Made by a program: the position numbers and the translations under genes. A stretch of DNA of 64,000 nucleotides, taken from IMG/VR virus record IMGVR_UViG_3300045015_000053, one strand, 5' to 3'. Positions 6,936 through 45,718 of this stretch are shown piece after piece; within the stretch, counting starts at the first letter, position 1; each line of letters begins with the position of its first letter. The stretch is from a virus (lineage: Duplodnaviria; Caudoviricetes). The notes below the pieces were generated by a model that was not told where the DNA came from, did no database searches, and was given only the letters and a program-made list of their open reading frames with translations.

Positions 6936-7006
6936 AGATCCGTGTAGGTGGTCCTACAGCGAAACTCCAAATCTCGCCAAACCGGGTTCGATTCCTGGCG
7001 GATCTG
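6936..7006 (+). tRNA. tRNA-Trp(CCA), short D loop
   Basis: Acceptor AGATCCG/CGGATCT, loop CTCCAAA, T loop TTCGATT. Confidence 0.7.
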
Positions 7007-7031
7007 CTTCAAATTCTTCGATTAGTTTGGA

Positions 7032-7061
7032 GTCTTCATGACTAAGATAAGTCATGAAGAC
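7032..7061 (+). promoter_or_regulatory. 12-bp inverted repeat sequestering the HNH start codon
   Basis: GTCTTCATGACT-AAGATA-AGTCATGAAGAC; ATG 7054 lies in the 3' arm. Confidence 0.65.
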
Positions 7062-7485
7062 TAAACATTGCAAACGATGTTCGTTGGACTTGCCAACGTC
7101 ATCATTCTCGAAGAACTGCCGTAAATCTGATGGCCTTCAAATCAGTTGTAAAAGCTGTATGAAGGCAATGAACGCCAAACACTATGTCCAGTACAAAGAC
7201 AAGCAGTTGGCGATCAACCGAGAAAACAAACGCATCATCCGCGAAAAGGTTCGATTTCTGAAAGAGGCGAACCCTTGCGGTTGTGGCGAGTCTGCTGTGT
7301 GCTGTTTGGACTTCCACCATATCGGGAAGAAGTCTGACACGATTTCAAGGATGTTGTCCAACACATACAGTTGGGAGCGACTGGAAGCTGAACTCAGGAA
7401 ATGTTGTGTGTTGTGCGCCAACTGCCATCGCAAGCATCATGCGGGCGAAAAATTGAAGTTCAAATGCGTTCCGATTTTGTTGTGA
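7054..7485 (+). CDS. HNH endonuclease with N-terminal Zn finger
   Basis: CxxC...CKSC, LDFHH, CCVLCANCHRKHH. Confidence 0.85.
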   Translation: MKTKHCKRCSLDLPTSSFSKNCRKSDGLQISCKSCMKAMNAKHYVQYKDKQLAINRENKRIIREKVRFLKEANPCGCGESAVCCLDFHHIGKKSDTISRMLSNTYSWERLEAELRKCCVLCANCHRKHHAGEKLKFKCVPILL

Positions 7486-7501
7486 TTCCTGGCGGATCTG
7501 C

Positions 7502-8221
7502 TTGATGATCAATCCCAACAACCCGTACACCAACATGCAAAAAAGGGTGTACGGCTCGCAGTCGCCGTGGTGGTCGGTTCATCGACGCGATCCCGTTGTC
7601 GGGACGTTCGACGCCCACAACAAACACTCCGACTACGAGTTGTTGTTCAAAGGAATCGACACCAAAGAACTGGTCGCACTCGACTTCGGATGTGGTCCGG
7701 GTCGAAACATCGTGAAGTACGCCGGCCGCTTCCGTCGTATCGACGGCGTGGATCTCGACTACGCCAACCTGCTCAACGCGAAGAGTTGGGCCGATCACAA
7801 CGGGTTGAACGGGTTCAAACTGTACCTGTGCAACGGTGTGGATCTCGGCGGCATCGGAAATGACGAGTACGATCTGGTGATGACGACGATCACCCTTCAA
7901 CACATCTGCGTACACGAGATACGCCAGAACTACTTCCGAGAGTTCTGTCGGGTGCTGAAGCCGGGCGGTCGGTTGTCGTTCCAAATGGGGTTCGGGTCGC
8001 CGTCGCCGAACGCGGTGAGCTATTACGCGAACCACTACGAGGCGACCGCGACGAACAGGGGTTGCGACACCGAGGTGTCCGACCCGGATCATCTAAAAGA
8101 AGATCTGGGCAAGGCCGGTTTCGATGGGTTCGAGTACGATCTGCGGCCACCGGGTCCGGGTGACTATCACCCCCAGTGGATCTTCGTGCGGGCGAGAAGT
8201 CGCGCTCAGGAGGATAGATAG
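7502..8221 (+). CDS. Class I SAM-dependent methyltransferase
   Basis: LDFGCGPGRN motif I, GVD, TLQHI, RVLKPGG. Confidence 0.85.
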   Translation: MMINPNNPYTNMQKRVYGSQSPWWSVHRRDPVVGTFDAHNKHSDYELLFKGIDTKELVALDFGCGPGRNIVKYAGRFRRIDGVDLDYANLLNAKSWADHNGLNGFKLYLCNGVDLGGIGNDEYDLVMTTITLQHICVHEIRQNYFREFCRVLKPGGRLSFQMGFGSPSPNAVSYYANHYEATATNRGCDTEVSDPDHLKEDLGKAGFDGFEYDLRPPGPGDYHPQWIFVRARSRAQEDR

Positions 8222-8572
8222 GTGTGAACGATTCACGCCGAGCTAAGGAGGCTCATGAGCGAAAAGGACTTCAAAAACAAGCGTGCGCGTAAGGCACTGC
8301 GGGATTTGTGAGAGGTACAGTGAGCGGCTGTCGTTGTTCGAGGCCGAGTTGATGGTGTTGGCGATCAGGGCGGGCAGCATGGTGGCGGCTCTGAAAGAAA
8401 TTGGGATTGCAAAAAGCAGGATAAAGGGCATACTGAGAGCGGCCAGGGAACTGGACGAAAAACTCAGAGACATGTGAACCTTCGGATGGACGGCAGCGTC
8501 CATCCAGTACAGAGATCCGGCGAGAAGCAACAGGATGAAGGGCGTGACGCTCGCTTGTGATTATGAGTTAAC

Positions 8573-8643
8573 GGGGTCGTGGTGAAGTGGTATCATGCGA
8601 CAATGGCATTGTTGAGGTAGGGGTTCGATTCCCCTCGGCTCCA
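8573..8643 (+). tRNA. tRNA-Ala(GGC)
   Basis: G3-U70, arm CGACA-ATGGCAT-TGTTG. Confidence 0.85.
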
Positions 8644-8651
8644 CTAAAGGT

Positions 8652-8894
8652 GTGATGATGACGGACGAAGAACTTTGGGACGCTCTCGACGGCTTGTTCG
8701 CCTATGACATGGGCTGTCGCTCGTCGGGCATCAAAGATGATAAGCTTCGAGATCGCGTCAAGGCTGAATTGGAGAAAGACAAGCTGAGACTGTCGCGCAT
8801 CGTCAGAGATCGAATGCTGACGGAAAACCGACTGGCTCAAGGATACGGTCTGGAAGACGTAAAAGAGTTCATTGATTGGTCAGACCGCCTGTAG
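8652..8894 (+). CDS. Hypothetical protein
   Basis: ORF with AAGG upstream. Confidence 0.55.
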   Translation: MMMTDEELWDALDGLFAYDMGCRSSGIKDDKLRDRVKAELEKDKLRLSRIVRDRMLTENRLAQGYGLEDVKEFIDWSDRL

Positions 8895-8904
8895 GAAGAA
8901 AGTC

Positions 8905-9270
8905 ATGAGCGTCAGAAGTCGCGCGGCGAACAAGGCAAAGGCTACGAAGCTCGGCATCTCGCTCCAAAAGATCGAGAAGCTCCACCTACCCTACAGCGGG
9001 TGCGGTGACGCGGCCGAGTGGCACAGTCTTCTGGGCGAGTTCCTCGCGACCTACAAGGACGCGAAGCCACGGGTCGAAATCGATGTTGACGGGTACGATG
9101 GGTATCCAGACAACGTGGTGGTTTCGGCCGTCGTGGACAAGACCGATCAGGAACTGATCAACGAGATCAAGTCGAAGGAAGACCTGATCGCCGCTCAGAA
9201 GAAGAAGATCGAAGACAAGGAACGGGCTGAACTCGAACGGCTTGAGGCCAAGTACAGGAAGAAGTCATGA
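8905..9270 (+). CDS. Hypothetical protein
   Basis: ORF, ATGA-coupled to the next gene. Confidence 0.6.
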   Translation: MSVRSRAANKAKATKLGISLQKIEKLHLPYSGCGDAAEWHSLLGEFLATYKDAKPRVEIDVDGYDGYPDNVVVSAVVDKTDQELINEIKSKEDLIAAQKKKIEDKERAELERLEAKYRKKS

Positions 9271-9500
9271 TCACCGACGACGACCGCGCCTACGTCGCAA
9301 AGAAGATCGGCGAGTGGGTTGCCACCCTAGAAGCCGAGGGTTTGGCCGACAAGCCGATCATGTCTTGTGCGTGCGGGCAGTGTCCGAATGGGGTCGTCAC
9401 GCCGCGCAGCGTTCTCAGGGACATTGAGAACCGGACGGAAGAGGGCGAGCGGTTCGTTGAGAGTTGGGTGGACTTGAACGTCCGAGGTATTCTGAAATGA
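9267..9500 (+). CDS. Hypothetical protein
   Basis: ORF, genome-typical codons. Confidence 0.55.
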   Translation: MITDDDRAYVAKKIGEWVATLEAEGLADKPIMSCACGQCPNGVVTPRSVLRDIENRTEEGERFVESWVDLNVRGILK

Positions 9501-9690
9501 CGCCTCCTTTCCCGAATTTCATCGCCGTGGTGCTTGGTCTGTCGATGGCGTCCTGTTTTTTCTTGGGTGGCAACATCCGAAAGTGGATGTTGGGGCATAA
9601 ATTGGATGTGTGGGAAAAGGCCGGGATGCTGTTGCACCCGGTGGTGATTGTGGCGGGTGTCGTGAACGTGTTCTTGGCACTTGGGAATAA

Positions 9691-9758
9691 GGGGTCACTA
9701 GCGGACTAGCTCTGTCGTTCGCAACGACGGATTCGGGGTTCGACTCCCCGTGGCTCCA
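9691..9758 (+). tRNA. tRNA-Ala(CGC), reduced D arm
   Basis: Acceptor GGGGTCA/TGGCTCC with G3-U70, arm TGTCG-TTCGCAA-CGACG. Confidence 0.75.
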
Positions 9759-9814
9759 CTGCACGCTTCTTGCTGAAATGCGGATAAATCGACGTGCGTT
9801 AAAAATATCGGCCT

Positions 9815-9885
9815 GGGGTGTTGGTATAGTGGTATTACGTCTGCTTTGCAAGCAGAAGACCGGGGTCCGATTCCCCGACGCTCCA
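9815..9885 (+). tRNA. tRNA-Ala(TGC)
   Basis: G3-U70, arm TCTGC-TTTGCAA-GCAGA. Confidence 0.85.
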
Positions 9886-9887
9886 CT

Positions 9888-9947
9888 GCGAAGATGACAG
9901 TTGGGATTACATCGCCAATGTGAAATCTCAGCGACTTTTTGCTTCGC
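9888..9947 (+). ncRNA. Minimal Y RNA-like hairpin 1
   Basis: GCGAAG-ATGAC-AGTTGGGATTACAT...ATGTGAAATCTCAGCGACT-TTTTG-CTTCGC. Confidence 0.7.
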
Positions 9948-9951
9948 GATT

Positions 9952-10022
9952 GCCTTCATAGTTTAGTGGCAGAACACGATCTTGGTAAGATTGAAACCTG
10001 AGTTCGATTCTCAGTGAAGGCT
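9952..10022 (+). tRNA. tRNA-Thr(GGT)
   Basis: Acceptor GCCTTCA/TGAAGGC, arm CGATC-TTGGTAA-GATTG. Confidence 0.9.
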
Positions 10023-10360
10023 CTTGGAGACACCGATGTCATCCGAAGAAGATGAGGTTGAAGGTGGTCCGTGTCACACGGTGACGGCGGAAGACATGAT
10101 CGAGATACGCCGGCGCATGTGCGGCGGTGATGTCCTCAAGCTAGTCAACCACTACTTGATTTCATACGGCACGCCGTACTCGGCAGAATTGGTTGTGAAC
10201 GACACCAGTCTCGTCTGCGTGACGAAGGACGTGTCGGAAGGCCAAAGCACCGAGTGCTACAACGCCGAAGAGTTGTTGAAGTCACTGGAACGCTGTTCTT
10301 CGACGGAAGACGTGCGAGTGGTTTTGGAAGAAAGCGGTCTGGCTCTGTGAATGGGGGAAC

Positions 10361-10717
10361 TTGAGGACGTTTAACGAGTGGGTTCTGCTGCAAGAAGATA
10401 CGATCTGGGAGAAGCACGGTCGCGATCTCCCGTCCATCTTTAAGTCAACCCATTATGCTCTGCCGACCTATCAACAACTGGAAGAGTTCAGCGACTATCC
10501 CGAACTGACGGCAGAAGAGATCGTTCAAGGTTTCGGGTATACGATTGTGGGTCGTGGCGTGAGCAGTCCCGACAACTGCAAGAAGATCGTTGAGTCGATT
10601 CGGTTGTTGGTGGAGCGATACCCCGACCGGCTGGAATACAAAGAGGCGTTGACTAAGGCCGAAGAAGAGGCCAAGATCAAACTCGAAAAGTGGCGCAGGG
10701 GGGTACGTTTCCCGTAA
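10361..10717 (+). CDS. Hypothetical protein with CTS-like N-terminus (MRTFNEWVLLQE)
   Basis: TTG start after GGGGAA; shared N-terminal motif. Confidence 0.6.
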   Translation: MRTFNEWVLLQEDTIWEKHGRDLPSIFKSTHYALPTYQQLEEFSDYPELTAEEIVQGFGYTIVGRGVSSPDNCKKIVESIRLLVERYPDRLEYKEALTKAEEEAKIKLEKWRRGVRFP

Positions 10718-10730
10718 TGGAGGGATTGTC

Positions 10731-11162
10731 ATGACGCTTCCGACCGGCAAGAACAAGACGAAGCTCGTCCGCGAGGGTGAGGAAAAACGGCTCGCACAAG
10801 AAAGTGAGCAGAAGCGGCAAGAGACGGAAAAGGCTGCGGCCGAGCAGCGAAAGAAGGATGACGAGTTCTCCAAGCTCGTCACGAGCTTGAAGGAACGGAT
10901 CGAAGCAACCGTTTACCGCGCGATCAACGCCGGTCATCGGGAAACCGAGATCATCATCCCGAAGGACTACGCCGAGCCTCGATACCTCGAAGCGTGGACG
11001 AAGGCGGTGGTCGGGCTGCGGCGCAGTTACGGCAAAGAATACAAGTTCGATTTGCACGAACACCGCCTATACTGTGACAACAGGTTCGAGGCCGCGAACG
11101 TGGACGGCGTCAGCTACCAAGAGTGGACCGAAGACGCTCACAGGTTGAAGGTCACTTGGTGA
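10731..11162 (+). CDS. Hypothetical protein
   Basis: SD GGAGG, coiled-coil N-terminus. Confidence 0.65.
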   Translation: MTLPTGKNKTKLVREGEEKRLAQESEQKRQETEKAAAEQRKKDDEFSKLVTSLKERIEATVYRAINAGHRETEIIIPKDYAEPRYLEAWTKAVVGLRRSYGKEYKFDLHEHRLYCDNRFEAANVDGVSYQEWTEDAHRLKVTW

Positions 11163-11204
11163 TTTTGCGGTGAAGTTTGAAAACGGGTCTATAATGACCT
11201 TGAT

Positions 11205-11278
11205 GGTGTGCGTGGTGTAGTGGCTTTGCACGTTTCCCTGTGAAGGAAAAGGTGGCGGATCGTAACCGCTCGCACACC
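11205..11278 (+). tRNA. tRNA-His(GTG) with encoded G-1
   Basis: 8-bp acceptor GGTGTGCG/CGCACACC, arm TTTCC-CTGTGAA-GGAAA. Confidence 0.85.
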
Positions 11279-11345
11279 CTAGTCGAGATGACAGACAGGA
11301 GTACATTCACTACTCGTTCTCTTGTCAACTTATTGCTCGGCTTAT

Positions 11346-11413
11346 GCCCCGCCCTGCGGTCAGGTTCGGAGTCTACGAAACTCTGAAGTTCCGTTCGACT
11401 CGGAAGCGGGGTA
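11346..11413 (+). tRNA. tRNA-Arg(ACG), reduced D arm
   Basis: Acceptor GCCCCGC/GCGGGGT, arm GGAGT-CTACGAA-ACTCT. Confidence 0.7.
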
Positions 11414-11416
11414 CTT

Positions 11417-11487
11417 GCCCGGTCCAGCGGTTTACCGGCACTGAGCTTGCGAAGCTCGGTTGCGTGGTTCGACTCCACGACAGGGTA
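11417..11487 (+). tRNA. tRNA-Arg(GCG)
   Basis: Arm TGAGC-TTGCGAA-GCTCG, T loop TTCGACT, one acceptor mismatch. Confidence 0.7.
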
Positions 11488-11490
11488 CTC

Positions 11491-11551
11491 GGTGAGATGA
11501 ACGTAGGGATTACATTGGTTATGTGAAATCTCTACAACCTTTTTGCTCATC
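11491..11551 (+). ncRNA. Minimal Y RNA-like hairpin 2
   Basis: GGTGAG-ATGA-ACGTAGGGATTACAT...ATGTGAAATCTCTAC...TTTTG-CTCATC. Confidence 0.7.
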
Positions 11552-11574
11552 ACATTTTCTTCCGAAAGGCGCGA

Positions 11575-11853
11575 ATGGCGACGAGTGGCGACCCTGAGAT
11601 CTGGTTGTTGCAACGCATTGATGAGTTGCAGGACAAACCTAATTGGCCCGCGACCCACAAGAACATCTGGCAGGGCAGTTATGATGTGTGGTTCTCGGAA
11701 CAAGATCGGATCGACGCCTACGAGATTCCAAAAAGACGGATGGCGAGCGCTGTCAAGCAGGATCTCATTCAGAGTAGCATCAAGGAAGTCGGGAAGTACA
11801 AGTTCGAGGTCTGGAGTTTGACCGAGAAGGGCAAGCAGTTGATTGGCAAGTGA
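11575..11853 (+). CDS. Hypothetical protein
   Basis: ORF with AAGG upstream. Confidence 0.55.
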   Translation: MATSGDPEIWLLQRIDELQDKPNWPATHKNIWQGSYDVWFSEQDRIDAYEIPKRRMASAVKQDLIQSSIKEVGKYKFEVWSLTEKGKQLIGK

Positions 11854-12058
11854 TGTGGGCAATAACATGAGCAAGACGATTTTGCCGTGGCCGATGATTT
11901 TGGGGCTAACCGCCGGAATCATGGTCGGAAATTGTTGCTTGAAATTGCTTGAAGACTGGCCTCGCGACAAAGGGTTGTTGTTCGGTTTGGTTTGCGGCCT
12001 CGTGAACGTTGTTTTGTGCGGTTCGTTCCGTGTAATTGAATGGATGGTTCGGCGTTAA

Positions 12059-12132
12059 CGGCCCATAGTGTAGTGGTTTCTGCACGAGAGTCTGATAAAC
12101 TCTAAGTCGAAGTTCGATTCTTCGTGGGCCGA
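12059..12132 (+). tRNA. tRNA-Ile(GAT)
   Basis: Acceptor CGGCCCA/TGGGCCG, loop CTGATAA. Confidence 0.85.
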
Positions 12133-12141
12133 CTGATTGAT

Positions 12142-12211
12142 GGTGTACGACTCCGGTGAGTAGTTGTGGTTGTGAACTATGACAAGGTGGGTTCGACCCC
12201 CATCGTACACC
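12142..12211 (+). tRNA. tRNA-His(GTG), degenerate
   Basis: 8-bp acceptor GGTGTACG/CGTACACC, loop TTGTGAA; weak D and anticodon stems. Confidence 0.6.
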
Positions 12212-12214
12212 CTT

Positions 12215-12292
12215 GCGAGATGACCTTGTTGGGGATTACATTCCTTTTCAGAATGTGCCGAAAGGCACAATCTCCGACGTTCTTTTGCTCGC
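12215..12292 (+). ncRNA. Minimal Y RNA-like hairpin 3 (with extra GAAA hairpin)
   Basis: GCGAG-ATGACC-TTGTTGGGGATTACATTC...AATCTCCGAC...TTTTG-CTCGC. Confidence 0.7.
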
Positions 12293-12298
12293 TTTATT

Positions 12299-12370
12299 CG
12301 GCCTGTCGTTCAATGGTTAGGACAGTGGTCTGATAAACCGCAAACGGTGGTTCGACTCCACCCAGGCCGA
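12299..12370 (+). tRNA. tRNA-Ile(GAT)
   Basis: Acceptor CGGCCTG/CAGGCCG, arm GTGGT-CTGATAA-ACCGC. Confidence 0.9.
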
Positions 12371-12374
12371 CTTC

Positions 12375-12404
12375 TGTCTGATAATTTTTCCAATTTATCA
12401 GACA
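12375..12404. repeat. Inverted repeat copying the Ile anticodon loop, upstream of HNH
   Basis: TGTCTGATAA-N10-TTATCAGACA; GTCTGATAA is shared with the tRNA. Confidence 0.8.
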
Positions 12405-12422
12405 ACATGGCTATAATACGTC

Positions 12423-12890
12423 ATGGAGAAATACTGCTCGACATGCAAGCAGACCAAGCTTTGCTCTGCATTCAACAAGAACCGCTATCGCAAAGACGGC
12501 CTGCAAGTCAGGTGCAGAGATTGCGACAAAGCCAGATCAAAACAGAGGTATCAGGGCGAGTACAAAGACTACTACATCGCCAAGAGCCAAGAGACGCTGG
12601 CTGCACGACGCCAGTGGTTCGAGGATTACAAGAAAGACAAATGCTGTTCACGGTGTGGCGACCTTCGCTGGTATGTGTTGGAGTTTCACCACCGTGACGG
12701 CGTTGACAAGGAAGACGAAATCTCTCGAATGGTCTTCAACAAGAGATCGGTCGATAAGATCATGCTGGAGATAGCCAAGTGCGATCTGGTGTGCGCCAAC
12801 TGCCACCGTGAATTGCACCACATGCAAAAACAGACGGGCGGTTCGACCCCGCCCTTCCGTACTGACGGGTTTCCACCCAGTAAAAACTAG
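12423..12890 (+). CDS. HNH endonuclease with N-terminal Zn finger
   Basis: CSTC...CRDC, LEFHHRDG, KCDLVCANCHR; TATAAT upstream; 3' end contains a tRNA T-arm remnant. Confidence 0.85.
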   Translation: MEKYCSTCKQTKLCSAFNKNRYRKDGLQVRCRDCDKARSKQRYQGEYKDYYIAKSQETLAARRQWFEDYKKDKCCSRCGDLRWYVLEFHHRDGVDKEDEISRMVFNKRSVDKIMLEIAKCDLVCANCHRELHHMQKQTGGSTPPFRTDGFPPSKN

Positions 12891-12997
12891 CAGGGTATCG
12901 GCTAGTTTCCCTGTCTACCCATAACCTCTGGTACGCTTGCGTGCCGGAAGGCTGAAACAACAGTGTACTGGTCGCTTTGCGGCCGGTGGGGACAAAA

Positions 12998-13070
12998 GGC
13001 GGCGTAGCCAAGTGGTAAGGCACCTACCCGCAAGGTAGGAGATTCGGGGGTTCGAGTCCTTCCGCCGCCT
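12998..13070 (+). tRNA. tRNA-Cys(GCA)
   Basis: Acceptor GGCGGCG/CGCCGCC, arm CCTAC-CCGCAAG-GTAGG, U73. Confidence 0.85.
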
Positions 13071-13084
13071 CTGAGGATTTCAAG

Positions 13085-13312
13085 ATGAAAGACTTCGATG
13101 AAACCGTCGCGCGGTTCAAGAATCAAGAACTCGACGTAGACGATTGGAACTTTGTCGTCCACTACGAAGGTGCCGGCGACTACGCGGCCTACATCATGGG
13201 CGAAGGCTCTCAGCAGTGCCTCGCCTACAAGACGGGGTTCGCGAGCAAGGAAGTAGTCATCGAGTTCTTCAAGTCCCTCGGCGTCAGCCGGGTACTCGAA
13301 GGGCTTGGGTAA
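13085..13312 (+). CDS. Hypothetical protein
   Basis: SD GAGG, genome-typical codons. Confidence 0.6.
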   Translation: MKDFDETVARFKNQELDVDDWNFVVHYEGAGDYAAYIMGEGSQQCLAYKTGFASKEVVIEFFKSLGVSRVLEGLG

Positions 13313-13383
13313 CAGGGGTAATTGTTACGGTAGCATTCTACTTTTGGAAAGTAGCAGCGTGGGTTCGACTCCCGCACCCCTGA
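13313..13383 (+). tRNA. tRNA-Pro(TGG)
   Basis: C1-G72, A73, arm CTACT-TTTGGAA-AGTAG. Confidence 0.85.
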
Positions 13384-13603
13384 CTCGGAAACGCCTATGA
13401 CATGAGGGCCGAGCAGAGAACCTTCACCGCCGAACTTCTGGCTTGGGGTTCTCTCCTGCTGGCTCTGGGCTTTCTGGTGGTCCCCATCTTGATGGGCGAA
13501 CCACGGCACATGTCGAACCCGATCTGCGAAAACGGGTTCATCGTGTTCGGCTTCGCCTGTTGCGCGTTTTTCTTGGTCGTGTTCGTGAATCCTGACAAAT
13601 GAC

Positions 13604-14001
13604 CGGGGACAAGTGTTCCGCTTCTGCTATAATTTGGGTATGAGCAGAGCAGAATACCGTCGCGAGTATCGTCGCCGTCGCAACTTGACCGACCCGAACT
13701 GGCGCAAAACAGAAAACGCAGATCAACTGAAACGGATTGAGCGAAATCGCCAGTTCGTAAATGAATTCAAGAAAAACAAAGGTTGCAAGTATTGCCCGGA
13801 GGCGGCTGTTTGTTGCCTCGACCTCCATCACCGAGATGGTGAAGAGAAAGACAAGGCGGTTTCCTACATGGTCAAAATGGGCTATGGTTTGGAACGCCTA
13901 AACGAAGAGATTCAGAAGTGTGACGTGGTGTGTGCAAACTGTCATCGCAAGTTGCACGCTGGTCACGTTCTGAATAGTAGATAACGGGGACAAGTGTTCC
14001 G
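13604..14001. repeat. 17-bp direct repeat (tRNA-Pro 5' end) flanking an HNH gene
   Basis: CGGGGACAAGTGTTCCG at 13604-13620 and 13985-14001. Confidence 0.9.
13640..13984 (+). CDS. HNH endonuclease
   Basis: CKYC, LDLHHRDG, KCDVVCANCHRKLH. Confidence 0.85.
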   Translation: MSRAEYRREYRRRRNLTDPNWRKTENADQLKRIERNRQFVNEFKKNKGCKYCPEAAVCCLDLHHRDGEEKDKAVSYMVKMGYGLERLNEEIQKCDVVCANCHRKLHAGHVLNSR

Positions 14002-14056
14002 GTACGCACCCGTGCTTTGGGAGCATGGAGAGCGGGTTCGATTCCCGCGTCCCCGA
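13985..14056 (+). tRNA. tRNA-Pro(TGG)
   Basis: Acceptor CGGGGAC/GTCCCCG, arm CGTGC-TTTGGGA-GCATG. Confidence 0.9.
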
Positions 14057-14418
14057 CTTATGCGACACCTACTCAACTTTCTGATCCTGCTGACGGCGGT
14101 CATCGGATTGCCATTCGGGTGGATCGTTGCTTGGAACAAGCCCATTGGCAAGAAGCTCCAGACGAGCTTCGTGTGCGGCGTAGTTCTTGTAGCGGCCGTC
14201 ATCCTGTACTTCAGCTTGAGGTGATTTGTGGGTGCAAAATCAACCATAGACATCACGCGGGCCGAGGCGTTGGCTTTCATCATGGACGCTTTGGGTCGTG
14301 CCGACAACGAGACGATTTCGCGTGTTCTTGAAGAATTGAACGACTGCGTTCGTGAGAGCGGCGACTACTCGAACAGTCTCGGCTTGCACAACTTTGCGGT
14401 TCGGGGCTAAATAACCAC

Positions 14419-14616
14419 ATGAAGAAGACCTTGTTTTCAAAGTGGTTGAAGGTTCGCGAGGCGGTGGGCGGCGCGGTCGGCCCTTACATCGCGGGCAAAA
14501 AGGACAAGACTGGTTCCGGGTGCGGCAAGCACACCGACTTCCAAGTCAGCGGCGCGTGCAGCGACCTGAACACTGAGAAGGGGAACAAGAAGATCCGCGA
14601 CGGCAACATCAAGTAA
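14419..14616 (+). CDS. Small protein with CTS-like N-terminus
   Basis: MKKTLFSKWLKVRE; TAAATA at 14408-14413. Confidence 0.55.
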   Translation: MKKTLFSKWLKVREAVGGAVGPYIAGKKDKTGSGCGKHTDFQVSGACSDLNTEKGNKKIRDGNIK

Positions 14617-14706
14617 CGGATGGGTAGATTAACTGGTAGAGCGATAAGTGTAGACGGAGATCCGTCAAGCATCAAAGTGTGTGGGTTCGAGTCCCACCCC
14701 ATCCGC
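14617..14706 (+). ncRNA. tRNA-like RNA lacking an anticodon loop
   Basis: Acceptor CGGATGG/CCATCCG, D loop TGGTA, T arm GTGGG-TTCGAGT-CCCAC; central arm ends in GACGG-AGAT-CCGTC. Confidence 0.55.
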
Positions 14707-14714
14707 TCGACAAT

Positions 14715-14787
14715 CGGGGTGAAGTCTTGTTAGTGAGACGCCTGTCTGGGGGACAGGAAGCGGCCGGTGCAACTCCGGTCACCCCGA
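14715..14787 (+). tRNA. tRNA-Pro(GGG)
   Basis: Acceptor CGGGGTG/CACCCCG, arm CCTGT-CTGGGGG-ACAGG. Confidence 0.85.
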
Positions 14788-14793
14788 CTTTAT

Positions 14794-14865
14794 GCACCGG
14801 AGCCTCTATGGTTGGGGTGCCGTCTTATAAGCGGCTAGTCGTGGGTTCGATTCCCACCCGGTGTA
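14794..14865 (+). tRNA. tRNA-Ile(TAT)
   Basis: Acceptor GCACCGG/CCGGTGT, arm GCCGT-CTTATAA-GCGGC, A73. Confidence 0.75.
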
Positions 14866-14877
14866 CTCGGAGGTCGG

Positions 14878-15366
14878 ATGATGAAACGCATCTTGTCCAG
14901 ACTGTTCGCCGCTGCTGTTCTGGGGTTCCTGTTTTGGATCGTCTACACGGCCGGTCATCTCGACGGCCACAAACACGTCGAGGAAGCCAAGCTCGCGGCT
15001 AAGGCGGAAACGCCCAAATCGCCGCCCCTCACCGACTGGAAGAAGTTCTACGATCTGGTGAAGGCCGACAAAGCTGGCTACATGTTGATCGAGGTCGAAG
15101 CATCGTGTGCCGACCGCGAACAATCCGATTTCACTTTGTTTCTCGTAGACGGCAATCGCTGGTACGAGATGCAAGTCGGCGGCTTGTGGAGTTGCGGCGG
15201 GCCGCACCCCGACAAGCCGTATCGTTTTTTCGCCCTGCCCCAACCGTCATTCGATTCGATTTTGAAGAGGGTTCCCTCCGACGACGCCAAGTTCGTCATG
15301 GTGGGACCGGGTCAGCCGAAACTGACCAACGTCAAGATCTCCTATCACGACAAGGACAGGCCATGA
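14878..15366 (+). CDS. Membrane-anchored hypothetical protein (paralog A)
   Basis: N-terminal TM segment; shares TDWKKFY, LFLVDG.RWYE, LWSCGGPH and VPSDDAKFV with the next gene. Confidence 0.75.
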   Translation: MMKRILSRLFAAAVLGFLFWIVYTAGHLDGHKHVEEAKLAAKAETPKSPPLTDWKKFYDLVKADKAGYMLIEVEASCADREQSDFTLFLVDGNRWYEMQVGGLWSCGGPHPDKPYRFFALPQPSFDSILKRVPSDDAKFVMVGPGQPKLTNVKISYHDKDRP

Positions 15367-15857
15367 AAAAGGCACTGCTCGCTTCGGCCGCGATCATCTT
15401 CGCTGTCTGGTTCGGTCATTACGTCGGCTACAGCCGGTGCAAGATCGACACGATGGAGCGTGAGAACGCCGAGTCCCGCGCCAAGATGATGGCGACGAAG
15501 CCCATCATTCCTCCAGTTACCGACTGGAAAAAGTTCTACATCGCCATTGAAAGTGGCGATGTCAACGCGATGGAATGGAGTGTTGGCGTTCAGGCCGATC
15601 CCGATTCGGAATACAACCGCTGCACCTTGTTTCTCGTAGACGGGGACCGCTGGTACGAGGTGGAAGATCTCAGTTTGTGGAGTTGCGGCGGGCCGCACGA
15701 AGACGGCGAACTGTACCGTTCTTACGTTCTGCCGCGAGACAAGTTCCGCAAGATGTTGAAGACGGTGCCGTCCGACGACGCGAAGTTCGTGGTGGTCGGC
15801 CCCGGTCGCGCCAAACTGGTCGAAGTCGAAATCAAGTATCGCGAACGCAAACGATAA
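15363..15857 (+). CDS. Membrane-anchored hypothetical protein (paralog B)
   Basis: In the C-terminal part of listed ORF 15105-15857; start MKKALLASAA overlaps the upstream stop. Confidence 0.75.
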   Translation: MKKALLASAAIIFAVWFGHYVGYSRCKIDTMERENAESRAKMMATKPIIPPVTDWKKFYIAIESGDVNAMEWSVGVQADPDSEYNRCTLFLVDGDRWYEVEDLSLWSCGGPHEDGELYRSYVLPRDKFRKMLKTVPSDDAKFVVVGPGRAKLVEVEIKYRERKR

Positions 15858-15885
15858 CGTATACTGACGGCTGGAGGACAAAGCC

Positions 15886-16233
15886 ATGACCCCGGCCGAA
15901 CGCAAACAAAAGATCCGCGACCTTCAATGTCGCGCCGCCGATCTCTACCGGGAGGCCGGCGACCTTCGATGCGACTGCAACCACAACGTTCTGGTCAAAG
16001 AACCGGACGAATCCGGTCACTACGGCAGTGCCGAGTGCGAGGGTTGCGACGAAGACTTCGGGTGGTACTGTCACGCTTCCCCAGATCGTCGCTGTCACTA
16101 CTGGTTCCAGATCGAAGGCGAACGCAAGTTCGTTACGCTTGTCGATGGGACTCAGCACGACGTACCGGCCGACACTGAGGAACCGTATTACGAAGATTGC
16201 ATCTTCTGCGGACACCCCGACGAAAGAAAGTAG
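15886..16233 (+). CDS. Cys-rich hypothetical protein
   Basis: Multiple CxC/CxxC motifs; SD GGAGG. Confidence 0.65.
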   Translation: MTPAERKQKIRDLQCRAADLYREAGDLRCDCNHNVLVKEPDESGHYGSAECEGCDEDFGWYCHASPDRRCHYWFQIEGERKFVTLVDGTQHDVPADTEEPYYEDCIFCGHPDERK

Positions 16234-16559
16234 ACGCAATTTCGGAGACTGGCTCTTTCCCAGTTTATACTGAGCGGGAACTTACTTTCTCGGAGCCAGC
16301 CATGAACAAGGAATCGATCTTGGAACGTGTCCGCACCCACCCGGCCGAGCCGTTAAAGGACGACGCCCTTTACGTCTTTCGGATCACGCAGTTCAAGGGT
16401 CTGCTCGACCTCGTTGAAGACACGATGAAAAAGAGCGGCAAGGATCTGCCGACCGTTCTCGGCGCGTTCGCCAAGAACCGGGAGATCGTCCTGAACAGCT
16501 TCCCCTACGTTGGGGATGCGTTCGATGTCCTCATCAAAGACTTTAGCTGAGGACAAGCC

Positions 16560-17156: not shown

Positions 17157-17516
17157 AATGTCTAAGCAGCAAGAGCGAGATGAGCAACTCGCTGAGTTGT
17201 GGCGGGTGTTAACAGAAACACACGAACCGAGCCACCGCGCACGGCGCAAGCCGGGTGAGGAAATATCCCACACAACTGCCAAAGTGGAAGAAAAAGGTCG
17301 CGAGGCCGAGTATCGCTATCACCACGAATGTGCAAGCCAAACAGACCTGAGCCGGGGGCAGGGCGTTGAAGGTCGGGTTGGTGCGGCAGCTATCGGGCTG
17401 CGGGGCGAGCAATCGCCTCAGTCTAATGGTGGCACTTGTTATACGCGACTCAAAGGTTACGGCCTTTGAGTCAGGCGTGTGGCATAGAACAGAATGGGAG
17501 TTACGGGTTCGTGGAC

Positions 17517-40504: not shown

Positions 40505-40573
40505 GCCCCTGCCAGCGGTCTGGCTCTATCCCTCCGAAGGATGGTTGCGAAAGTCCGACTCTTTCCAGGGGTA
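40505..40573 (+). tRNA. tRNA-Arg(CCG), short D arm
   Basis: Acceptor GCCCCTG/CAGGGGT, arm TATCC-CTCCGAA-GGATG, T arm GAAAG-TCCGACT-CTTTC. Confidence 0.75.
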
Positions 40574-40577: not shown

Positions 40578-40610
40578 GTACCTCCGAAGCAATTTTTGCT
40601 TCGGAGGTAC
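40578..40610. repeat. Perfect 15-bp inverted repeat copying the Arg anticodon loop, upstream of HNH
   Basis: GTACCTCCGAAGCAA-TTT-TTGCTTCGGAGGTAC; CCTCCGAAG is shared with the tRNA. Confidence 0.85.
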
Positions 40611-40622: not shown

Positions 40623-41099
40623 ATGAAAACATGCCACAAATGTTGCAAGTGCAAAGAACTTGAACAGTTCCCGATCAACCGTAGTCGCAAAGATGGTCGT
40701 AGTGAAACTTGTTTACTCTGTAAACGAGAGTACAATCGTATCCACTACAAAAACAATCGCTCTTATTACATGGACAAGGCTCAAGCGGCAAGAGATCGTT
40801 TGAAGGAGGCTTTTCGTCAATTGAAAAGCGAGATGAAATGCAGTCGTTGTCCAGAGACTCATGTTGCGGCTTTGCAATTCCATCATACCGATCCTTCTAA
40901 GAAGGAATTCTCCATTTCGATGGCGGTACAATCCAATTGGTCAAAAGACAGAATCATGAATGAGATTGCTAAGTGTGAAGTTTTGTGCGCCAATTGCCAC
41001 CTCAAACATCATTGGAGCGAACGGCATGCTTCCGACCTCCCGATGGAAGTTACGGCAAACGCTCATCAAGGTGTACCAGAGCAAGATCGAACACCTTGA
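40623..41099 (+). CDS. HNH endonuclease with N-terminal Zn finger
   Basis: CxxC...CLLC, LQFHH, KCEVLCANCHLKHH. Confidence 0.85.
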   Translation: MKTCHKCCKCKELEQFPINRSRKDGRSETCLLCKREYNRIHYKNNRSYYMDKAQAARDRLKEAFRQLKSEMKCSRCPETHVAALQFHHTDPSKKEFSISMAVQSNWSKDRIMNEIAKCEVLCANCHLKHHWSERHASDLPMEVTANAHQGVPEQDRTP

Positions 41100-44187: not shown

Positions 44188-44193
44188 TGAGGT

Positions 44194-44232
44194 TATTTAG
44201 CCGTCTGAATTTGGACCTTGAATTGTTAAATA
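44194..44232. promoter_or_regulatory. Divergent pair of TAAATA late-type promoters
   Basis: TATTTA 44194-44199 (minus) and TAAATA 44227-44232 (plus), each 5-6 nt from an ATG. Confidence 0.6.
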
Positions 44233-44237
44233 GCTTC

Positions 44238-45125
44238 ATGGAAGAAGTTGAAATCCGTGGCGAATACTGGGTCCAGAACGGTCAGGTCGATTTCGCGGAC
44301 GGCGACATCGGCGATCAGAACCACGAAGGCATTGCCATTGACCACGTCGTCAGCAAATACGCTGATGAAGTTTCTAGTTTGGCAGACGAGTTGAATCTCG
44401 GTCACGAAGCACTCGATTCAGGCTACAACGGCTATGATTCCGAGGCCGTGTCGAAGCTTTTGTGGCGCGTTTACGAAACCTTGACTGTCGGTCGAGATCC
44501 CGACGACGAAGACGAACAGGGCGAAGAACGCGACCCCATTAGTGACGAAGAAGCCGACAGTTACATCATGAAAGAATTACGGTGTAACGCGGACGCCTAC
44601 CAGATTTTGCTCGGTCGTGGTGACGCAAGGCTTTACGTCATGAAGTACGAGGGGTGGATGGCGATCCGTTCGCACTCAATTGAGGTTTACGGGTATTCAG
44701 ATGCGATGCGTCCGCAAGTGGCGAGTGCCATCCAAGATGTGATTTACGAAGAACATAATTTGACCGACGACGAGTACGACCCAGAGACGGTTGAAATTGA
44801 TCTCCACGATCTCAAAAACAACAAATACTACAGTGTGACTTTGGCAGAGCTTTTGGCCCCACCAGCGATGCCGACGACTCAGACGCGGAACATTGACGAC
44901 GGCAAGAACGCTTACACTGGGAAGTTGAAAGACACCTCCACGGCAAGTTCACGCCCGGATCGCGCCGAGAGTGATCCGCAGTGGAACAAGAACAAGAGCG
45001 TGATGGGCAAATGGAACAGAGCCGTTAAGGACGTGACGGGTCAAGACCTGTGGCGTGGCACGTCGGAATGGCGTGTTACCTTCGGGGAATGGCTTGCGGA
45101 AAAGCATCCAGATCTACTAGAATAA
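44238..45125 (+). CDS. Acidic hypothetical protein
   Basis: Leaderless ATG after TAAATA; ends TFGEWLAEKHPDLLE. Confidence 0.7.
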   Translation: MEEVEIRGEYWVQNGQVDFADGDIGDQNHEGIAIDHVVSKYADEVSSLADELNLGHEALDSGYNGYDSEAVSKLLWRVYETLTVGRDPDDEDEQGEERDPISDEEADSYIMKELRCNADAYQILLGRGDARLYVMKYEGWMAIRSHSIEVYGYSDAMRPQVASAIQDVIYEEHNLTDDEYDPETVEIDLHDLKNNKYYSVTLAELLAPPAMPTTQTRNIDDGKNAYTGKLKDTSTASSRPDRAESDPQWNKNKSVMGKWNRAVKDVTGQDLWRGTSEWRVTFGEWLAEKHPDLLE

Positions 45126-45171
45126 AATTCGACGCGGGATTGGTATATCGGCTGTGCCGAAGATTTCCGAC

Positions 45172-45243
45172 GCGAGCGTAACTCAATGGTAGAGTGCTTG
45201 CCTTCCAAGCAAGCTGTTGTGGGTTCGAGTCCCATCGCTCGCT
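45172..45243 (+). tRNA. tRNA-Gly(TCC)
   Basis: Acceptor GCGAGCG/CGCTCGC, arm CTTGC-CTTCCAA-GCAAG. Confidence 0.9.
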
Positions 45244-45278
45244 CTTGCCTTCCAAATTTGACAAATTTGGAAGGCAAG
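45244..45278. repeat. Perfect 16-bp inverted repeat copying the Gly anticodon arm, upstream of HNH
   Basis: CTTGCCTTCCAAATTT-GAC-AAATTTGGAAGGCAAG; CTTGCCTTCCAA is shared with the tRNA. Confidence 0.9.
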
Positions 45279-45292
45279 TTGCTAAATACGGC

Positions 45293-45691
45293 ATGGTTAA
45301 AAAGTGCTGTATGTGTAAGCTGGATAAACTGCTCGATGCTTTCAAAAGCAATCCGCGACGACATGACGGATTGCAATCTCAATGTGCTGAATGCCACGCC
45401 GAGTATCGTCGTAAACATTACCTCGCTAACCGCGAGAAGTACATCAAGAAAGCAGCAAGCTGGAAGAAGAATTTCCAGGCTTGGTGGAAAGAGTACAAGA
45501 AGCAGTTCAAGTGTTCACGCTGCCCAGAACAACACCCTGCGTGCATCCAATTTCATCATCCCAATGACGACAAAGAGTTAGGTGTGTCGCAATGGGTTGG
45601 CAGAGGTGATAAAGAACGGGTTTTGGAAGAGATTGCCAAGTGCATCCCTCTTTGTGGCAACTGTCACGCTAAAGAGCATTGGAAAGACTAA
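45293..45691 (+). CDS. HNH endonuclease with N-terminal Zn finger
   Basis: CCMC...CAEC, IQFHH, KCIPLCGNCHAKEH; TAAATA 45283-45288. Confidence 0.85.
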   Translation: MVKKCCMCKLDKLLDAFKSNPRRHDGLQSQCAECHAEYRRKHYLANREKYIKKAASWKKNFQAWWKEYKKQFKCSRCPEQHPACIQFHHPNDDKELGVSQWVGRGDKERVLEEIAKCIPLCGNCHAKEHWKD

Positions 45692-45718
45692 CTCCCGTAT
45701 CCCGCTCTGGAGAATCAC

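Follow-up and report, generated by a model that had tools for sequence, protein, structure and literature searches.

Inverted repeats copying tRNA anticodon loops ahead of HNH nuclease genes in a lake-water phage

The I-TevI endonuclease of phage T4 represses its own gene by binding, without cutting, an operator similar to its homing site (Edgell et al. 2004; reviewed in PMC2988022), and autorepression is regarded as putative for I-TevII as well as I-TevIII (PMC2988022). In tRNA arrays, the free-standing endonucleases SegB and F-TflI/II/IV cut inside tRNA genes and favour the inheritance of the tRNA region or amplify this region (PMC2330249, PMC13096335). No description of palindromes that copy an anticodon loop was found in the literature searched. 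Such palindromes are present in a lake-water phage of 188 kb, which carries five HNH cassettes with an inverted repeat whose arms correspond to the anticodon loop of the adjoining tRNA. Four of them (Trp, Ile, Arg-like, and Gly) lie in the window, i.e., the whole stretch of 64,000 nucleotides analysed here, and the fifth, Gln-CTG, lies 3.8 kb before it and matches its tRNA over 6 nt in sense and 7 nt in antisense. Judged from sequence, a structural model, and analogy, these cassettes are tentatively read, at a little under even confidence, as free-standing homing endonucleases directed against anticodon-loop DNA and autorepressed via a palindromic operator of two target copies.

Anticodon-loop copies in the phage genome

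All features of the window described here lie on the + strand. In the Gly cassette, tRNA-Gly(TCC) (45172-45244; ARAGORN, Rfam 71 bits) is followed by the palindrome CTTGCCTTCCAAATTT-gac-AAATTTGGAAGGCAAG (45244-45278), with a 16-bp stem, 11 nt between the loop copies, and the hexamer TTGACA (45258-45263) at its centre. The palindrome and the tRNA have CTTGCCTTCCAA in common (11 nt sense, 12 antisense), and the repeat matches its own tRNA at 12/12 positions, including stem bases missing from the other Gly-TCC gene of the genome. The 132-aa HNH gene follows (45293-45691; profile match to the family). On either side of the unit stand GCGGGAT (45134-45140) and ATCCCGC (45700-45706), perhaps the two acceptor strands left by a destroyed tRNA. 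In the Ile cassette, tRNA-Ile(GAT) (12299-12371; ARAGORN, Rfam) precedes the palindrome TGTCTGATAA-10 nt-TTATCAGACA (12375-12404), where the loop copies (12378-12384 and 12395-12401) are separated by 10 nt and match the tRNA arm over GTCTGATAA in sense (9 nt) and over 10 nt in antisense. A TATAAT hexamer (12412-12417) stands 5 nt ahead of the ATG of the 155-aa HNH gene (12423-12890; profile match), and a T-arm-like tRNA fragment (~12836-12870) is contained in the 3' part of this gene. Both palindromes had been proposed in the original prediction and were confirmed.

The Arg-like palindrome GTACCTCCGAAGCAA-TTT-TTGCTTCGGAGGTAC (40578-40610; 15-bp stem, 11 nt between loop copies) likewise copies the loop of the adjoining element, with which it has CCTCCGAAG in common (9/9 nt sense/antisense), and precedes an HNH gene of 158 aa (40623-41099; profile match). 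The element itself (~40505-40573; loop CTCCGAA, anticodon CCG) had been called tRNA-Arg-CCG, a designation that did not hold, as ARAGORN does not call the element, Rfam has no match to it even at E<=10, and it consists of no more than acceptor stem and anticodon arm. The hairpin predicted at 7007-7033 in the Trp cassette stood only in part. Here, tRNA-Trp(CCA) (6936-7007) travels with the cassette, is called by ARAGORN with a non-canonical D arm, and scores below the Rfam gathering threshold. In the repeat (7007-7032), the copy is exact only in antisense, as TTTGGAGT (7026-7033, 8 nt), where TTTGGAG (7026-7032) is the exact complement of the Trp loop CTCCAAA; the partner arm CTTCAAA (7007-7013), across a 12-nt gap, pairs via one G.T, the sense match being 5 nt. 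The perfect palindrome of this cassette is another one (7031-7062; 13 bp, loop TAAGAT), whose right arm contains the ATG (7054) of the HNH gene. This gene (7054-7485; 143 aa; hmmsearch, phrog_2255 E = 1.6e-25) encodes an N-terminal CxxC..CxxC zinc ribbon, and the cassette is bracketed by two copies of a 20-nt direct repeat of the tRNA-Trp 3' end (6990-7009 and 7484-7503).

The family members of the genome, collected by hmmsearch, share only 32-43% identity, and the GC content of the cassettes is 44-50% versus 56% for the genome. The layout, described in the original prediction as always present, is not universal, since no anticodon-copy inverted repeat was found at the Asp, Pro, and ninth members, and the repeat of the Glu cassette, outside the window, does not match the tRNA of that cassette. 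A tandem of two HNH cores between two tRNA-Asp genes (1368-1994) and the member ahead of tRNA-Pro(TGG) (13640-13984), the latter with a 17-nt repeat of the tRNA-Pro 5' end on each side (~13604 and ~13986), contain neither zinc ribbon nor anticodon repeat; a further member (58954-59661), with an HNH core and two C-terminal HTH domains, has no tRNA nearby and only a short, unrelated palindrome. The statement that six of seven members abut tRNA genes is correct if the Arg-like element is counted. The repeat follows 4/7 of the tRNAs that are followed by an HNH gene (5/7 with Trp, missed in the count solely because its arm overlaps the masked tRNA end) versus 0/44 of the other tRNAs (Fisher p = 1.4e-4 on 4/7). 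Moreover, the longest matches of the palindromes to other tRNAs of the genome are 4-6 nt, which is background, and the four window regions fold far better than shuffled sequences (z -3.7 to -6.9). Chance is excluded as the source of the anticodon match in this genome.

Recurrence, geometry, and promoter overlap

Loci of this family lie within tRNA arrays in 43/80 cases from IMG/VR and 49/80 from metagenomes. Copies of at least 6 nt in both orientations were found in 13/40 loci versus a cross-locus null of 9.5% (p = 5e-5), and in the pooled viral and metagenomic set a pair of sense and antisense 7-mers was present in 15 of 79 independent loci versus ~0.008 per cross-locus pairing. The outside loci extend the design to at least ten further anticodons, covering Lys-TTT, Lys-CTT, Gly-TCC, Met, Trp, Pro-CGG, Ile-TAT, Gln-TTG, Phe, Arg-TCT, and Arg-ACG. 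The design is thus general and recurs across many unrelated phages. About two thirds of the tRNA-adjacent family members lack it, among them those of the GenBank phages Nappy, Hena1, and Wc4. The matched tRNA may be upstream, downstream, or on the opposite strand. Fragments of tRNA 5' ends stop at loop position 38-39 in L006, L121, L158, L166, and L011, and after the arm in L016, where the fragment and a spare tRNA have an identical 17-nt arm; the stops at 38/39 mark the insertion point, beside the copied sequence.

The order of loop copy, gap, and inverted copy is fixed, with a convergent arrangement in 19/20 cases and, when 0-60 nt were permitted, a gap of 10-14 nt in 13/15 outside loci and 5/5 cases in the genome. 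The hairpin "loops" measure 3 to 14 nt, but the loop copies keep a constant spacing. L091 contains two direct copies of the loop instead of a hairpin, and in L011 and L163 both arms depart from the tRNA identically, so symmetry itself has been maintained. Cassettes of the class that the window contains (the window class) have a -10-like hexamer 8-12 nt past the antisense copy and 5-6 nt ahead of the ATG, and the gap holds a -35-like hexamer, namely TTGAC(A/T) in the Gly cassette of the window (W_Gly), L003, L011, and L109, TTGGAG in L085, or TTGCAA in L166, with spacers of 17-19 nt; for Ile, Arg, Gln, and Trp the -35 assignments are weak. Members of the other class have the antisense copy directly at the ATG and, often, a -10-like hexamer in the gap. 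Judged by consensus, the repeat would thus straddle a core promoter element. A strict sigma-70 scan of the cassettes returned a full promoter only at the Pro cassette, and, of the promoter in the predicted layout, the -10-like box ahead of the ATG was the only consistent part. Intrinsic terminators were rejected, as no U-tract follows the hairpins.

The predicted nuclease and competing explanations

The AlphaFold2 model of the Gly HNH protein (mean pLDDT 96.8) contains only a zinc ribbon, a helical hairpin, and an HNH core. A symmetric homodimer is predicted with a score of 0.48, versus 0.00 for the best of three controls, a mark that was reached by 20/30 proteins solved as same-chain pairs versus 1/23 solved as single chains and that expresses likeness, not binding. 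The runs agree in 100% of the contacts (partner pLDDT 87), and the predicted interface lies in the HNH core, at residues 79-84 and 121-130. In L045 and L064 the repeat is present and the N-terminal zinc ribbon absent; the ribbon therefore cannot be the only reader of the repeat.

Each cassette would represent a free-standing homing-endonuclease gene from a small family of zinc-finger HNH proteins that inhabits phage tRNA arrays and is directed at the anticodon arm of tRNA genes. The inverted repeat would most likely be a DNA operator over the cassette's own promoter, formed by two convergent copies, 10-14 bp apart, of a recognition core that comprises anticodon loop positions 32-38 and a few 5'-stem bases. 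A nuclease dimer would bind this operator tightly and switch off its own transcription in the manner of I-TevI; at a tRNA gene with the same loop, it would cut or nick beside the loop, beginning a gene conversion that copies the cassette, often with a spare tRNA. In read-through RNA from the tRNA array the repeat would also form a hairpin, and silencing at the RNA level, of the kind found in T4 endonuclease genes, may act as a second layer; such a layer is hinted at by the one internal G.T and the very long perfect Arg and Gly stems. We infer DNA binding, dimerisation, repression, cleavage specificity, and leaderless transcription.

Among the three alternatives of the original prediction, the two-copy operator fits best, on account of the convergent copies, their 10-14 nt gap, the straddled hexamers, the direct copies of L091, the free placement and strand of the tRNA, the 5' tRNA fragments that stop at the loop, and the predicted symmetric dimer. 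Several features run against it. The Arg and Gly stems, perfect over 15-16 bp with 3-nt loops, exceed what an operator requires, the Trp arms pair through a G.T in an RNA-like manner, and the HNH proteins of one target anticodon do not cluster in the tree, which is itself unresolved. The outcome of the strict sigma-70 scan, the weak -35 assignments, the repeats of L045 and L064 beside proteins lacking the zinc ribbon, and the many tRNA-adjacent members that have no repeat also count against it. Moreover, the repeat matches the co-travelling tRNA and, therefore, the nuclease would bind its own cargo tRNA gene too. An explanation by an RNA hairpin only, which in tRNA-array read-through would silence translation or direct processing of the nuclease mRNA, is rather unlikely, though the most probable of the rivals; the likeness to the loop would then stem only from insertion of the element at 38/39 and from the evolution of a complement to the fixed flank on its upstream side, a flank that the two-armed copies brought along. 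In agreement with this explanation, the antisense arm ends 1-7 nt before the ATG in L016, L006, L037, L121, L018, L045, and L064, the loop of the tRNA fragment itself forms the sense arm in L016, L121, and L166, the window regions fold stably, G.T on the sense strand accounts for the sole internal mismatch (Trp) as well as for two mismatches at the edge, and A.C for none, and I-TevI, segB, and mobE of T4 provide a precedent (PMC2330249, PMC2988022). However, in the window class the hairpin stops 16-37 nt short of the ATG and upstream of the -10-like box, and therefore hides neither the start nor a ribosome site. The conserved gaps of 10-14 nt are poor RNA loops and contain -35- or -10-like hexamers, and the direct copies of L091 and the missing U-tracts also speak against this explanation.

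The repeat is improbable as a functionless by-product of insertion or repair through microhomology, co-conversion of flanks, or gene conversion with the adjoining tRNA. The duplicated tRNA pieces that bracket cassettes (20 nt for Trp, 17 nt for Pro, 7-nt acceptor strands for Gly) and the tRNA fragments beside many cassettes agree with such an origin, but simple duplication of a flank yields no inverted copy, the same convergent geometry and spacing occur in ~20 cassettes whose proteins are just 25-50% identical, and the parallel deviations of L011 and L163 point to maintained symmetry. Slightly less probable still is a tRNA-sensing RNA switch, in which the antisense arm would pair with the anticodon loop of the tRNA, mature or precursor, open the hairpin, and tie nuclease expression to that tRNA. 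The antisense match equals or exceeds the sense match (10 versus 9 nt in Ile, 10 versus 7 in L003, 8 versus 5 in Trp) and is specific to the tRNA travelling along; against this, Rfam found no T-box or other riboswitch, the complement is buried in a stable stem rather than exposed in a loop, the tRNA is sometimes downstream or on the other strand, and a switch predicts neither constant spacing nor promoter overlap. The switch is the second alternative of the original prediction; the third found no support. This third alternative proposes that the tRNA plus hairpin, or the antisense arm alone, guides the 130-160-aa HNH protein to complementary anticodon sequences, which is very improbable. Targets seem to switch among poorly clustered proteins, and a complementarity of 7-12 nt is available, but the model contains no guide-binding domain, the window-class consensus promoter would place the transcription start downstream of the repeat, the tRNA is not always co-oriented, and the low identity of the paralogues leaves ample room for specificity encoded in the protein.

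Comparison with known systems

The cassettes would resemble I-TevI in that a sequence like the presumed homing site precedes the endonuclease gene and overlaps its own putative promoter. I-TevI, however, is a monomeric GIY-YIG enzyme encoded in an intron and has one operator copy, whereas the nucleases described here are free-standing HNH proteins, predicted to dimerise, with a palindrome of two tRNA anticodon-loop copies and a 10-14-bp gap. As for SegB of T4/T6 and F-TflI/II/IV of T5, the nuclease gene is located in a tRNA array with a hairpin before the ORF (PMC2330249, PMC13096335), but SegB belongs to the GIY-YIG enzymes and recognises the common T-loop motif RAWTSGAAC instead of one anticodon, and no anticodon-copy repeat has been reported for SegB or the T5 enzymes. 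The HNH restriction endonucleases PacI (3LDY) and Hpy99I (3FC3) are small enzymes of the beta-beta-alpha-metal type, each with two Cys4 zinc sites, and cut palindromic DNA as symmetric dimers, a constitution that is predicted here. The zinc ribbon of the model superposes on an Hpy99I zinc finger (Z 5.8, rmsd 1.5 A, 39 residues), and whole-chain likeness to either enzyme was not detected (Foldseek E > 0.1); their sites are short and contiguous, whereas two half-sites lie here 17-21 bp apart, centre to centre. Finally, a stable hairpin right before the ORF, with a promoter inside or after it, is shared with the T4-type hairpins of I-TevI/II/III, segB, and mobE, and the second Trp palindrome (7031-7062) fits the start-sequestering form exactly. 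T4-type hairpins hide the ribosome site with a sequence unrelated to the target, whereas most repeats described here stop a good distance ahead of the ATG and are copies of the anticodon loop.

HNH genes of the tRNA array and their protein family

The window spans positions 73123-137122 of one contig of 188,369 bp with a GC content of 56%, and a sequencing-run search places the phage DNA in lake-water metagenomes only, with no RNA run among those listed. ARAGORN recognises 50 tRNA genes in the genome, 30 of them in the window. The HNH genes of the window match the PHROG family phrog_2255 'HNH endonuclease' (E = 1e-25 to 9e-33), and a profile built from four of them retrieves nine family members in the genome. 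Eight of these nine adjoin tRNA genes, an Arg-like element included: two lie just before the window, after tRNA-Gln(CTG) and tRNA-Glu(CTC), and those in the window follow tRNA-Asp, tRNA-Trp, tRNA-Ile, tRNA-Pro, the Arg-like element and tRNA-Gly(TCC). The cassettes have a GC content of 44-50%, versus 56% for the genome. The member between two tRNA-Asp genes (1368-1994) is a single 208-aa ORF with two HNH cores in tandem and without the N-terminal zinc ribbon. The HNH ORF ends inside or directly against the next tRNA gene at positions 1980 and 13985 of the window and 69772 and 72437 of the genome. At such junctions, RNase P processing would cut the nuclease mRNA at its stop, which has reportedly been proposed for T4 segB.

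The ninth member (58954-59661) has no tRNA ahead, and two C-terminal helix-turn-helix domains (HTH_38, 2.3e-7; HTH_7, 1.2e-4) replace its zinc ribbon. Ahead of its TATAAT, at a distance of 11 nt, stands a short and unrelated palindrome, TGCAAAA-ctc-TTTTGCA. The HNH gene is directly followed by a gene for a Ro60/TROVE protein with a vWA domain (59603-61396; Pfam PF25045, 6.5e-14; PF05731, 1.3e-7). The usual partners of Ro60 proteins are tRNA-like Y RNAs.

No Pfam family matches the four window HNH proteins at E <= 0.01, and Pfam HNH gives weak matches only, in 19/62 relatives (best E = 1.9e-4). The (D/E/Q)FHH and C(A/G)NCH motifs are kept in the six zinc-ribbon copies of the genome. Four residues of CxNCH (C, N, C and H) do not vary across 62 sequences, and neither do the zinc-site cysteines flanking the core (C74, C77, C121 and C124, as CxxC ... 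CxxC). An additional N-terminal ribbon is formed by C5, C8, C31 and C34. The AlphaFold2 (AF2) model of the Gly HNH protein, based on the 62 sequences (mean pLDDT 96.8), comprises a zinc ribbon (1-30), a long helical hairpin (32-69) and an HNH core (74-131) with a strand-strand-helix at 85-131. The H..N..H motif and this predicted beta-beta-alpha core assign the family to the His-Me finger (HNH) endonucleases. A Foldseek search against the PDB returned nothing at E <= 0.001, its weak rows including PacI, Hpy99I and a nicking HNH, and the zinc ribbon of the model superposes on an Hpy99I zinc finger (VIA-align Z 5.8, rmsd 1.5 Å, 39 residues). Prediction with two copies gives a symmetric pairing through the HNH core, with a score of 0.48 versus 0.00 for the best of 3 controls, 100% contact agreement between runs and a partner pLDDT of 87. 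The mark applied to this score is reached by 20/30 proteins solved as one-chain pairs and by 1/23 solved as single chains. The prediction lends support to a putative dimer. The three ribbon-less members of this genome are all devoid of the repeat described below; the N-terminal ribbon was rejected as the reader of that repeat, since two loci of other origin (L045 and L064) carry the repeat without a ribbon.

Repeats that copy the neighbouring anticodon loop

The original prediction described four inverted repeats of the window, each placed between a tRNA and an HNH gene and each copying the anticodon loop of its own tRNA. Direct reading confirms these sequences, the Trp case being exact in the complement arm only. 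The Ile repeat is TGTCTGATAA-10 nt-TTATCAGACA, compared with the tRNA arm GGTCTGATAAA; the Arg repeat is GTACCTCCGAAGCAA-TTT-TTGCTTCGGAGGTAC, compared with CCCTCCGAAGG; and the Gly repeat is CTTGCCTTCCAAATTT-gac-AAATTTGGAAGGCAAG, compared with CTTGCCTTCCAAGCAAG. In the Trp repeat, the exact match is the complement TTTGGAGT, and its partner CTTCAAA pairs via one G.T. The same cassette contains a perfect palindrome (7031-7062) that is separate from the loop copy and has TAAGAT in its loop and the ATG in its arm. A fifth case, Gln(CTG), lies before the window and reads GGCTCTGA-12 nt-TCAGAGCC, with the loop CTCTGAA in its tRNA. For the other tRNAs of the genome, the longest match to the anticodon arm in the next 110 nt is 4-6 nt, barring cases with a similar tRNA downstream. 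With tRNAs masked, a sense and antisense pair of the 7-nt loop follows 4/7 tRNAs that precede an HNH gene and 0/44 others (Fisher p = 1.4e-4), a count from which Trp is absent because its arm overlaps the masked tRNA end.

Other parts of the prediction had to be amended. The supposed tRNA-Arg(CCG) is recognised neither by ARAGORN nor by Rfam at E <= 10, and shows, besides an acceptor stem of 7 bp and an anticodon arm (CCG), no recognisable D or T arms (40505-40573). Likewise, the rule that a repeat precedes the tRNA-adjacent HNH genes holds for the Trp, Ile, Arg-like, Gly and Gln cassettes, whereas the Asp, Pro and ninth members have none. The Glu cassette does have a repeat, although it does not copy its tRNA: the palindrome ACGTCCGA-11 nt-TCGGACGT, at genome positions 71988-72014 (L001:5989-6015 under the locus handle of this genome), matches neither flanking tRNA-Glu. 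Since its core TCCGA is similar to an Arg-CCG loop, this cassette may have been displaced from its original tRNA.

Phages commonly carry the family: tblastn finds it in 182 GenBank phage records, and IMG/VR and metagenomes each contributed more than 500 stretches. From the latter two sources, 80 loci each were analysed, with tRNAs within 1.5 kb in 43/80 IMG/VR loci and 49/80 metagenome loci; the usual setting of the HNH gene is inside a tRNA array and on the same strand. Copies of the loop plus 3 flanking bases were sought in both orientations within 100 nt ahead of the HNH start, and upstream regions paired with tRNAs of other loci served as the null. Copies of at least 6 nt in both orientations occur in 13/40 IMG/VR loci versus 9.5% in the null (p = 5e-5), and copies of at least 7 nt in 6/40 versus 1.7%. 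Among pooled independent loci, 15/79 have the 7-nt loop of the neighbour in a sense and an antisense copy, one mismatch being tolerated, versus about 0.008 per cross-locus pairing. The anticodons of these outside loci are Lys-TTT, Lys-CTT, Gly-TCC, Met-CAT, Trp-CCA, Pro-CGG, Ile-TAT, Gln-TTG, Phe-GAA, Arg-TCT and Arg-ACG. The palindrome thus covaries with the anticodon, in a survey of the kind that the original prediction had called for.

The repeat is missing in about two thirds of the tRNA-adjacent family members, and the GenBank phages Nappy, Hena1 and Wc4 have an HNH gene 15-25 nt after a tRNA with no repeat there. At the outside locus L091 (about 395-500), tRNA-Arg(CCT) is followed, ahead of the HNH gene, by the loop sequence CTCCTAA in two direct copies at a distance of 15 nt, with no inverted pair. 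Two viral contigs (L021 and L051) have a tRNA with a CTA anticodon, of amber-suppressor type and labelled 'Pyl' by ARAGORN, adjoining family HNH genes. In a tree of 50 family proteins, branches are long, most forks are open and no clustering of cassettes with the same anticodon is evident; L016 and L166, the only close pair encountered (51% identical), have Gly-TCC in common.

Repeat geometry, promoter-like elements and probable insertion sites

Alignment of 20 cases on their loop copies reveals a common plan, namely a loop copy, a gap of 10-14 nt and an inverted copy, with 17-21 bp from centre to centre and a convergent arrangement in 19/20 cases. The gap falls within 10-14 nt in 13/15 outside loci and 5/5 in-genome cases, in a search that permitted 0-60. 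The apparent hairpin loop measures between 3 and 14 nt, as in some cases the palindrome continues towards its centre, yet the spacing of the loop copies is constant. The tRNA-like portion always covers loop positions 32-38, adds 0-5 bases of the 5' stem and ends sharply at 38/39.

Two classes of cassettes can be distinguished by the position of the repeat relative to the start codon. In class A (all window cases and loci L003, L085, L092, L109, L005, L011, L163 and L166), the antisense copy precedes the ATG by 16-37 nt and is followed after 8-12 nt by a -10-like hexamer (TATAAT, TAAGAT, TACGAT or TAAACT). The gap contains TTGACA or TTGACT in the window Gly cassette, L003, L011 and L109, TTGGAG in L085 and TTGCAA in L166, with spacers of 17-19 nt. 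TATAAT or TAAGAT stands 5-6 nt ahead of the ATG in 7/9 genome cassettes, a distance that suggests leaderless class A transcripts beginning downstream of the repeat. In class B (L006, L016, L018, L037, L045, L064, L121 and L052), the antisense copy reaches to within 1-7 nt of the ATG, and a -10-like hexamer often lies in the gap. At the level of consensus hexamers, the repeat appears to straddle a core promoter element in both classes. A simple, strict sigma-70 scan calls a full promoter at the Pro cassette only, so the other promoter assignments stay at that consensus level. No T-tract was found after the repeat.

Several loci carry a 5' tRNA fragment directly ahead of the repeat, which ends at position 38-39 in L006, L121, L158, L166 and L011 and after the anticodon arm in L016. 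In these loci, the sense copy is the loop of the fragment itself, and a complete, sequence-divergent tRNA with the same anticodon lies downstream of the HNH gene. Junctions at position 38/39 bring the putative break next to the bases that are copied. The window cassettes run in the order complete tRNA, repeat and HNH gene, and the unit as a whole appears to be what was inserted. GCGGGAT and ATCCCGC bracket the Gly unit. Upstream of the Trp unit, Rfam finds a tRNA (6853-6923) with the Val-UAC-like loop TTTACAC and the acceptor 5' strand GATTGAT, the complement of which (ATCAATC, 7508-7514) lies some 580 nt downstream, past the Trp cassette; the Trp tRNA, palindrome and HNH gene therefore seem to sit inside the 3' acceptor strand of that tRNA. 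Bracketing repeats of tRNA ends measure 20 nt at the Trp cassette and 17 nt at the Pro cassette. Judging from these sequences, the tRNA fragments, bracketing repeats and low GC are characteristic of free-standing homing-endonuclease cassettes, which settle in tRNA genes and provide a spare copy.

In the search for close relatives and empty sites, megablast gave no match of the Gly region, L003, L006 or L045 to GenBank phages, and IMG/VR yielded neither a relative by way of the neighbour protein nor the exact 27-mer of tRNA-Gly'. Contigs of four lake-water metagenome runs, compared with positions 1-20000, yielded no usable empty-site junction, the pieces being fragmentary and the joint sides 20-22 nt between tRNA-like segments. 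Fold-back and microhomology priming were also considered on paper as ways in which an inverted copy might originate or might help copying, and none of these schemes gives the observed structure.

A candidate operator and its relation to known systems

Among the alternatives raised in the original prediction, an operator made of two target-site copies is the best supported. The recognition core would be the anticodon loop of the tRNA gene type invaded by the element, and the repeat a palindromic operator of two such cores over the endonuclease's own promoter, which the enzyme would bind and throttle. As a whole, a homing endonuclease aimed at anticodon-loop DNA and autorepressed in this manner is put forward tentatively, with slightly less than even confidence. 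The main rival is a hairpin in read-through RNA as the sole function of the repeat. A DNA-level site is favoured over an RNA structure because half-site spacing is constant despite variable stems, the promoter hexamers are in register with the repeat, L091 has a direct-repeat variant, the position and strand of the tRNA are immaterial and the protein is predicted to be dimeric. However, the Arg and Gly cassettes have perfect stems that greatly exceed the length required of an operator, and the Trp arms pair via G.T; these weak points of the operator suggest that, as in T4, read-through RNA may add a hairpin layer alongside it. The operator reading has further weak points. The repeat matches the co-travelling tRNA including its specific stem bases (Gly 12/12), so the cargo gene would be a putative target too; proteins with the same presumed target do not cluster in the largely open tree; and the repeat occurs in the ribbon-less L045 and L064.

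The antisense arm might instead act by base pairing, as a tRNA-sensing leader RNA or as a short nucleic-acid guide for the 130-160-aa HNH protein, which would explain how one small protein family matches many different anticodons. This is considered very improbable, nothing specific speaking for the switch or the guide. The anticodon complement lies in a stem. As for a T-box or other tRNA-sensing riboswitch, Rfam has no match that reaches the gathering score anywhere in the window, and none with E <= 10 in the surroundings of the Arg repeat. Two other candidates were rejected. A group I intron in the anticodon loop is at odds with the window cassettes, which have no 3' tRNA half after the HNH gene and only about 50-80 nt apart from the ORF, and Rfam finds nothing but tRNAs in the window. 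An intrinsic (rho-independent) terminator is called at 0/4 window repeats, and their tails are not T-rich.

If the operator reading holds, these genes represent a widespread family of very small nucleases specialised on a function-constrained part of the tRNA gene, the anticodon loop, each member bearing, within its promoter, a legible copy of the sequence it targets, so that the target could be predicted from sequence alone. The family would provide a small, naturally occurring collection of dimeric HNH proteins whose 7-12-bp specificities differ, in which the evolution of DNA recognition could be studied. It would also help to account for duplicated, broken and odd tRNA genes in phage tRNA arrays, which are now regarded as counter-defence loci.

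Free-standing endonucleases in phage tRNA clusters and autorepression via homing-site-like operators are already known, and no account of anticodon-copy palindromes before HNH genes, or of their spacing rule, was found in the literature searched. The repeat is well documented here as an observation, and the mechanism is a proposal. Enzymes of the I-TevI type have operators that are similar to the homing site and coincide in part with the promoter (PMC2988022). The candidate operator copies a loop in which the insertion junctions of several loci lie (38/39), a putative homing site, and consensus -10/-35 hexamers, not called by the strict scan, stand in fixed register with the repeat. If the operator reading holds, I-TevI-type autorepression, a matter of three intron enzymes in T4, would be widened to a large family from the environment. 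Moreover, phage endonucleases in tRNA clusters cut inside tRNA genes, SegB recognising a T-loop motif (PMC2330249, PMC13096335), and an enzyme directed at the anticodon loop would fit this habit.
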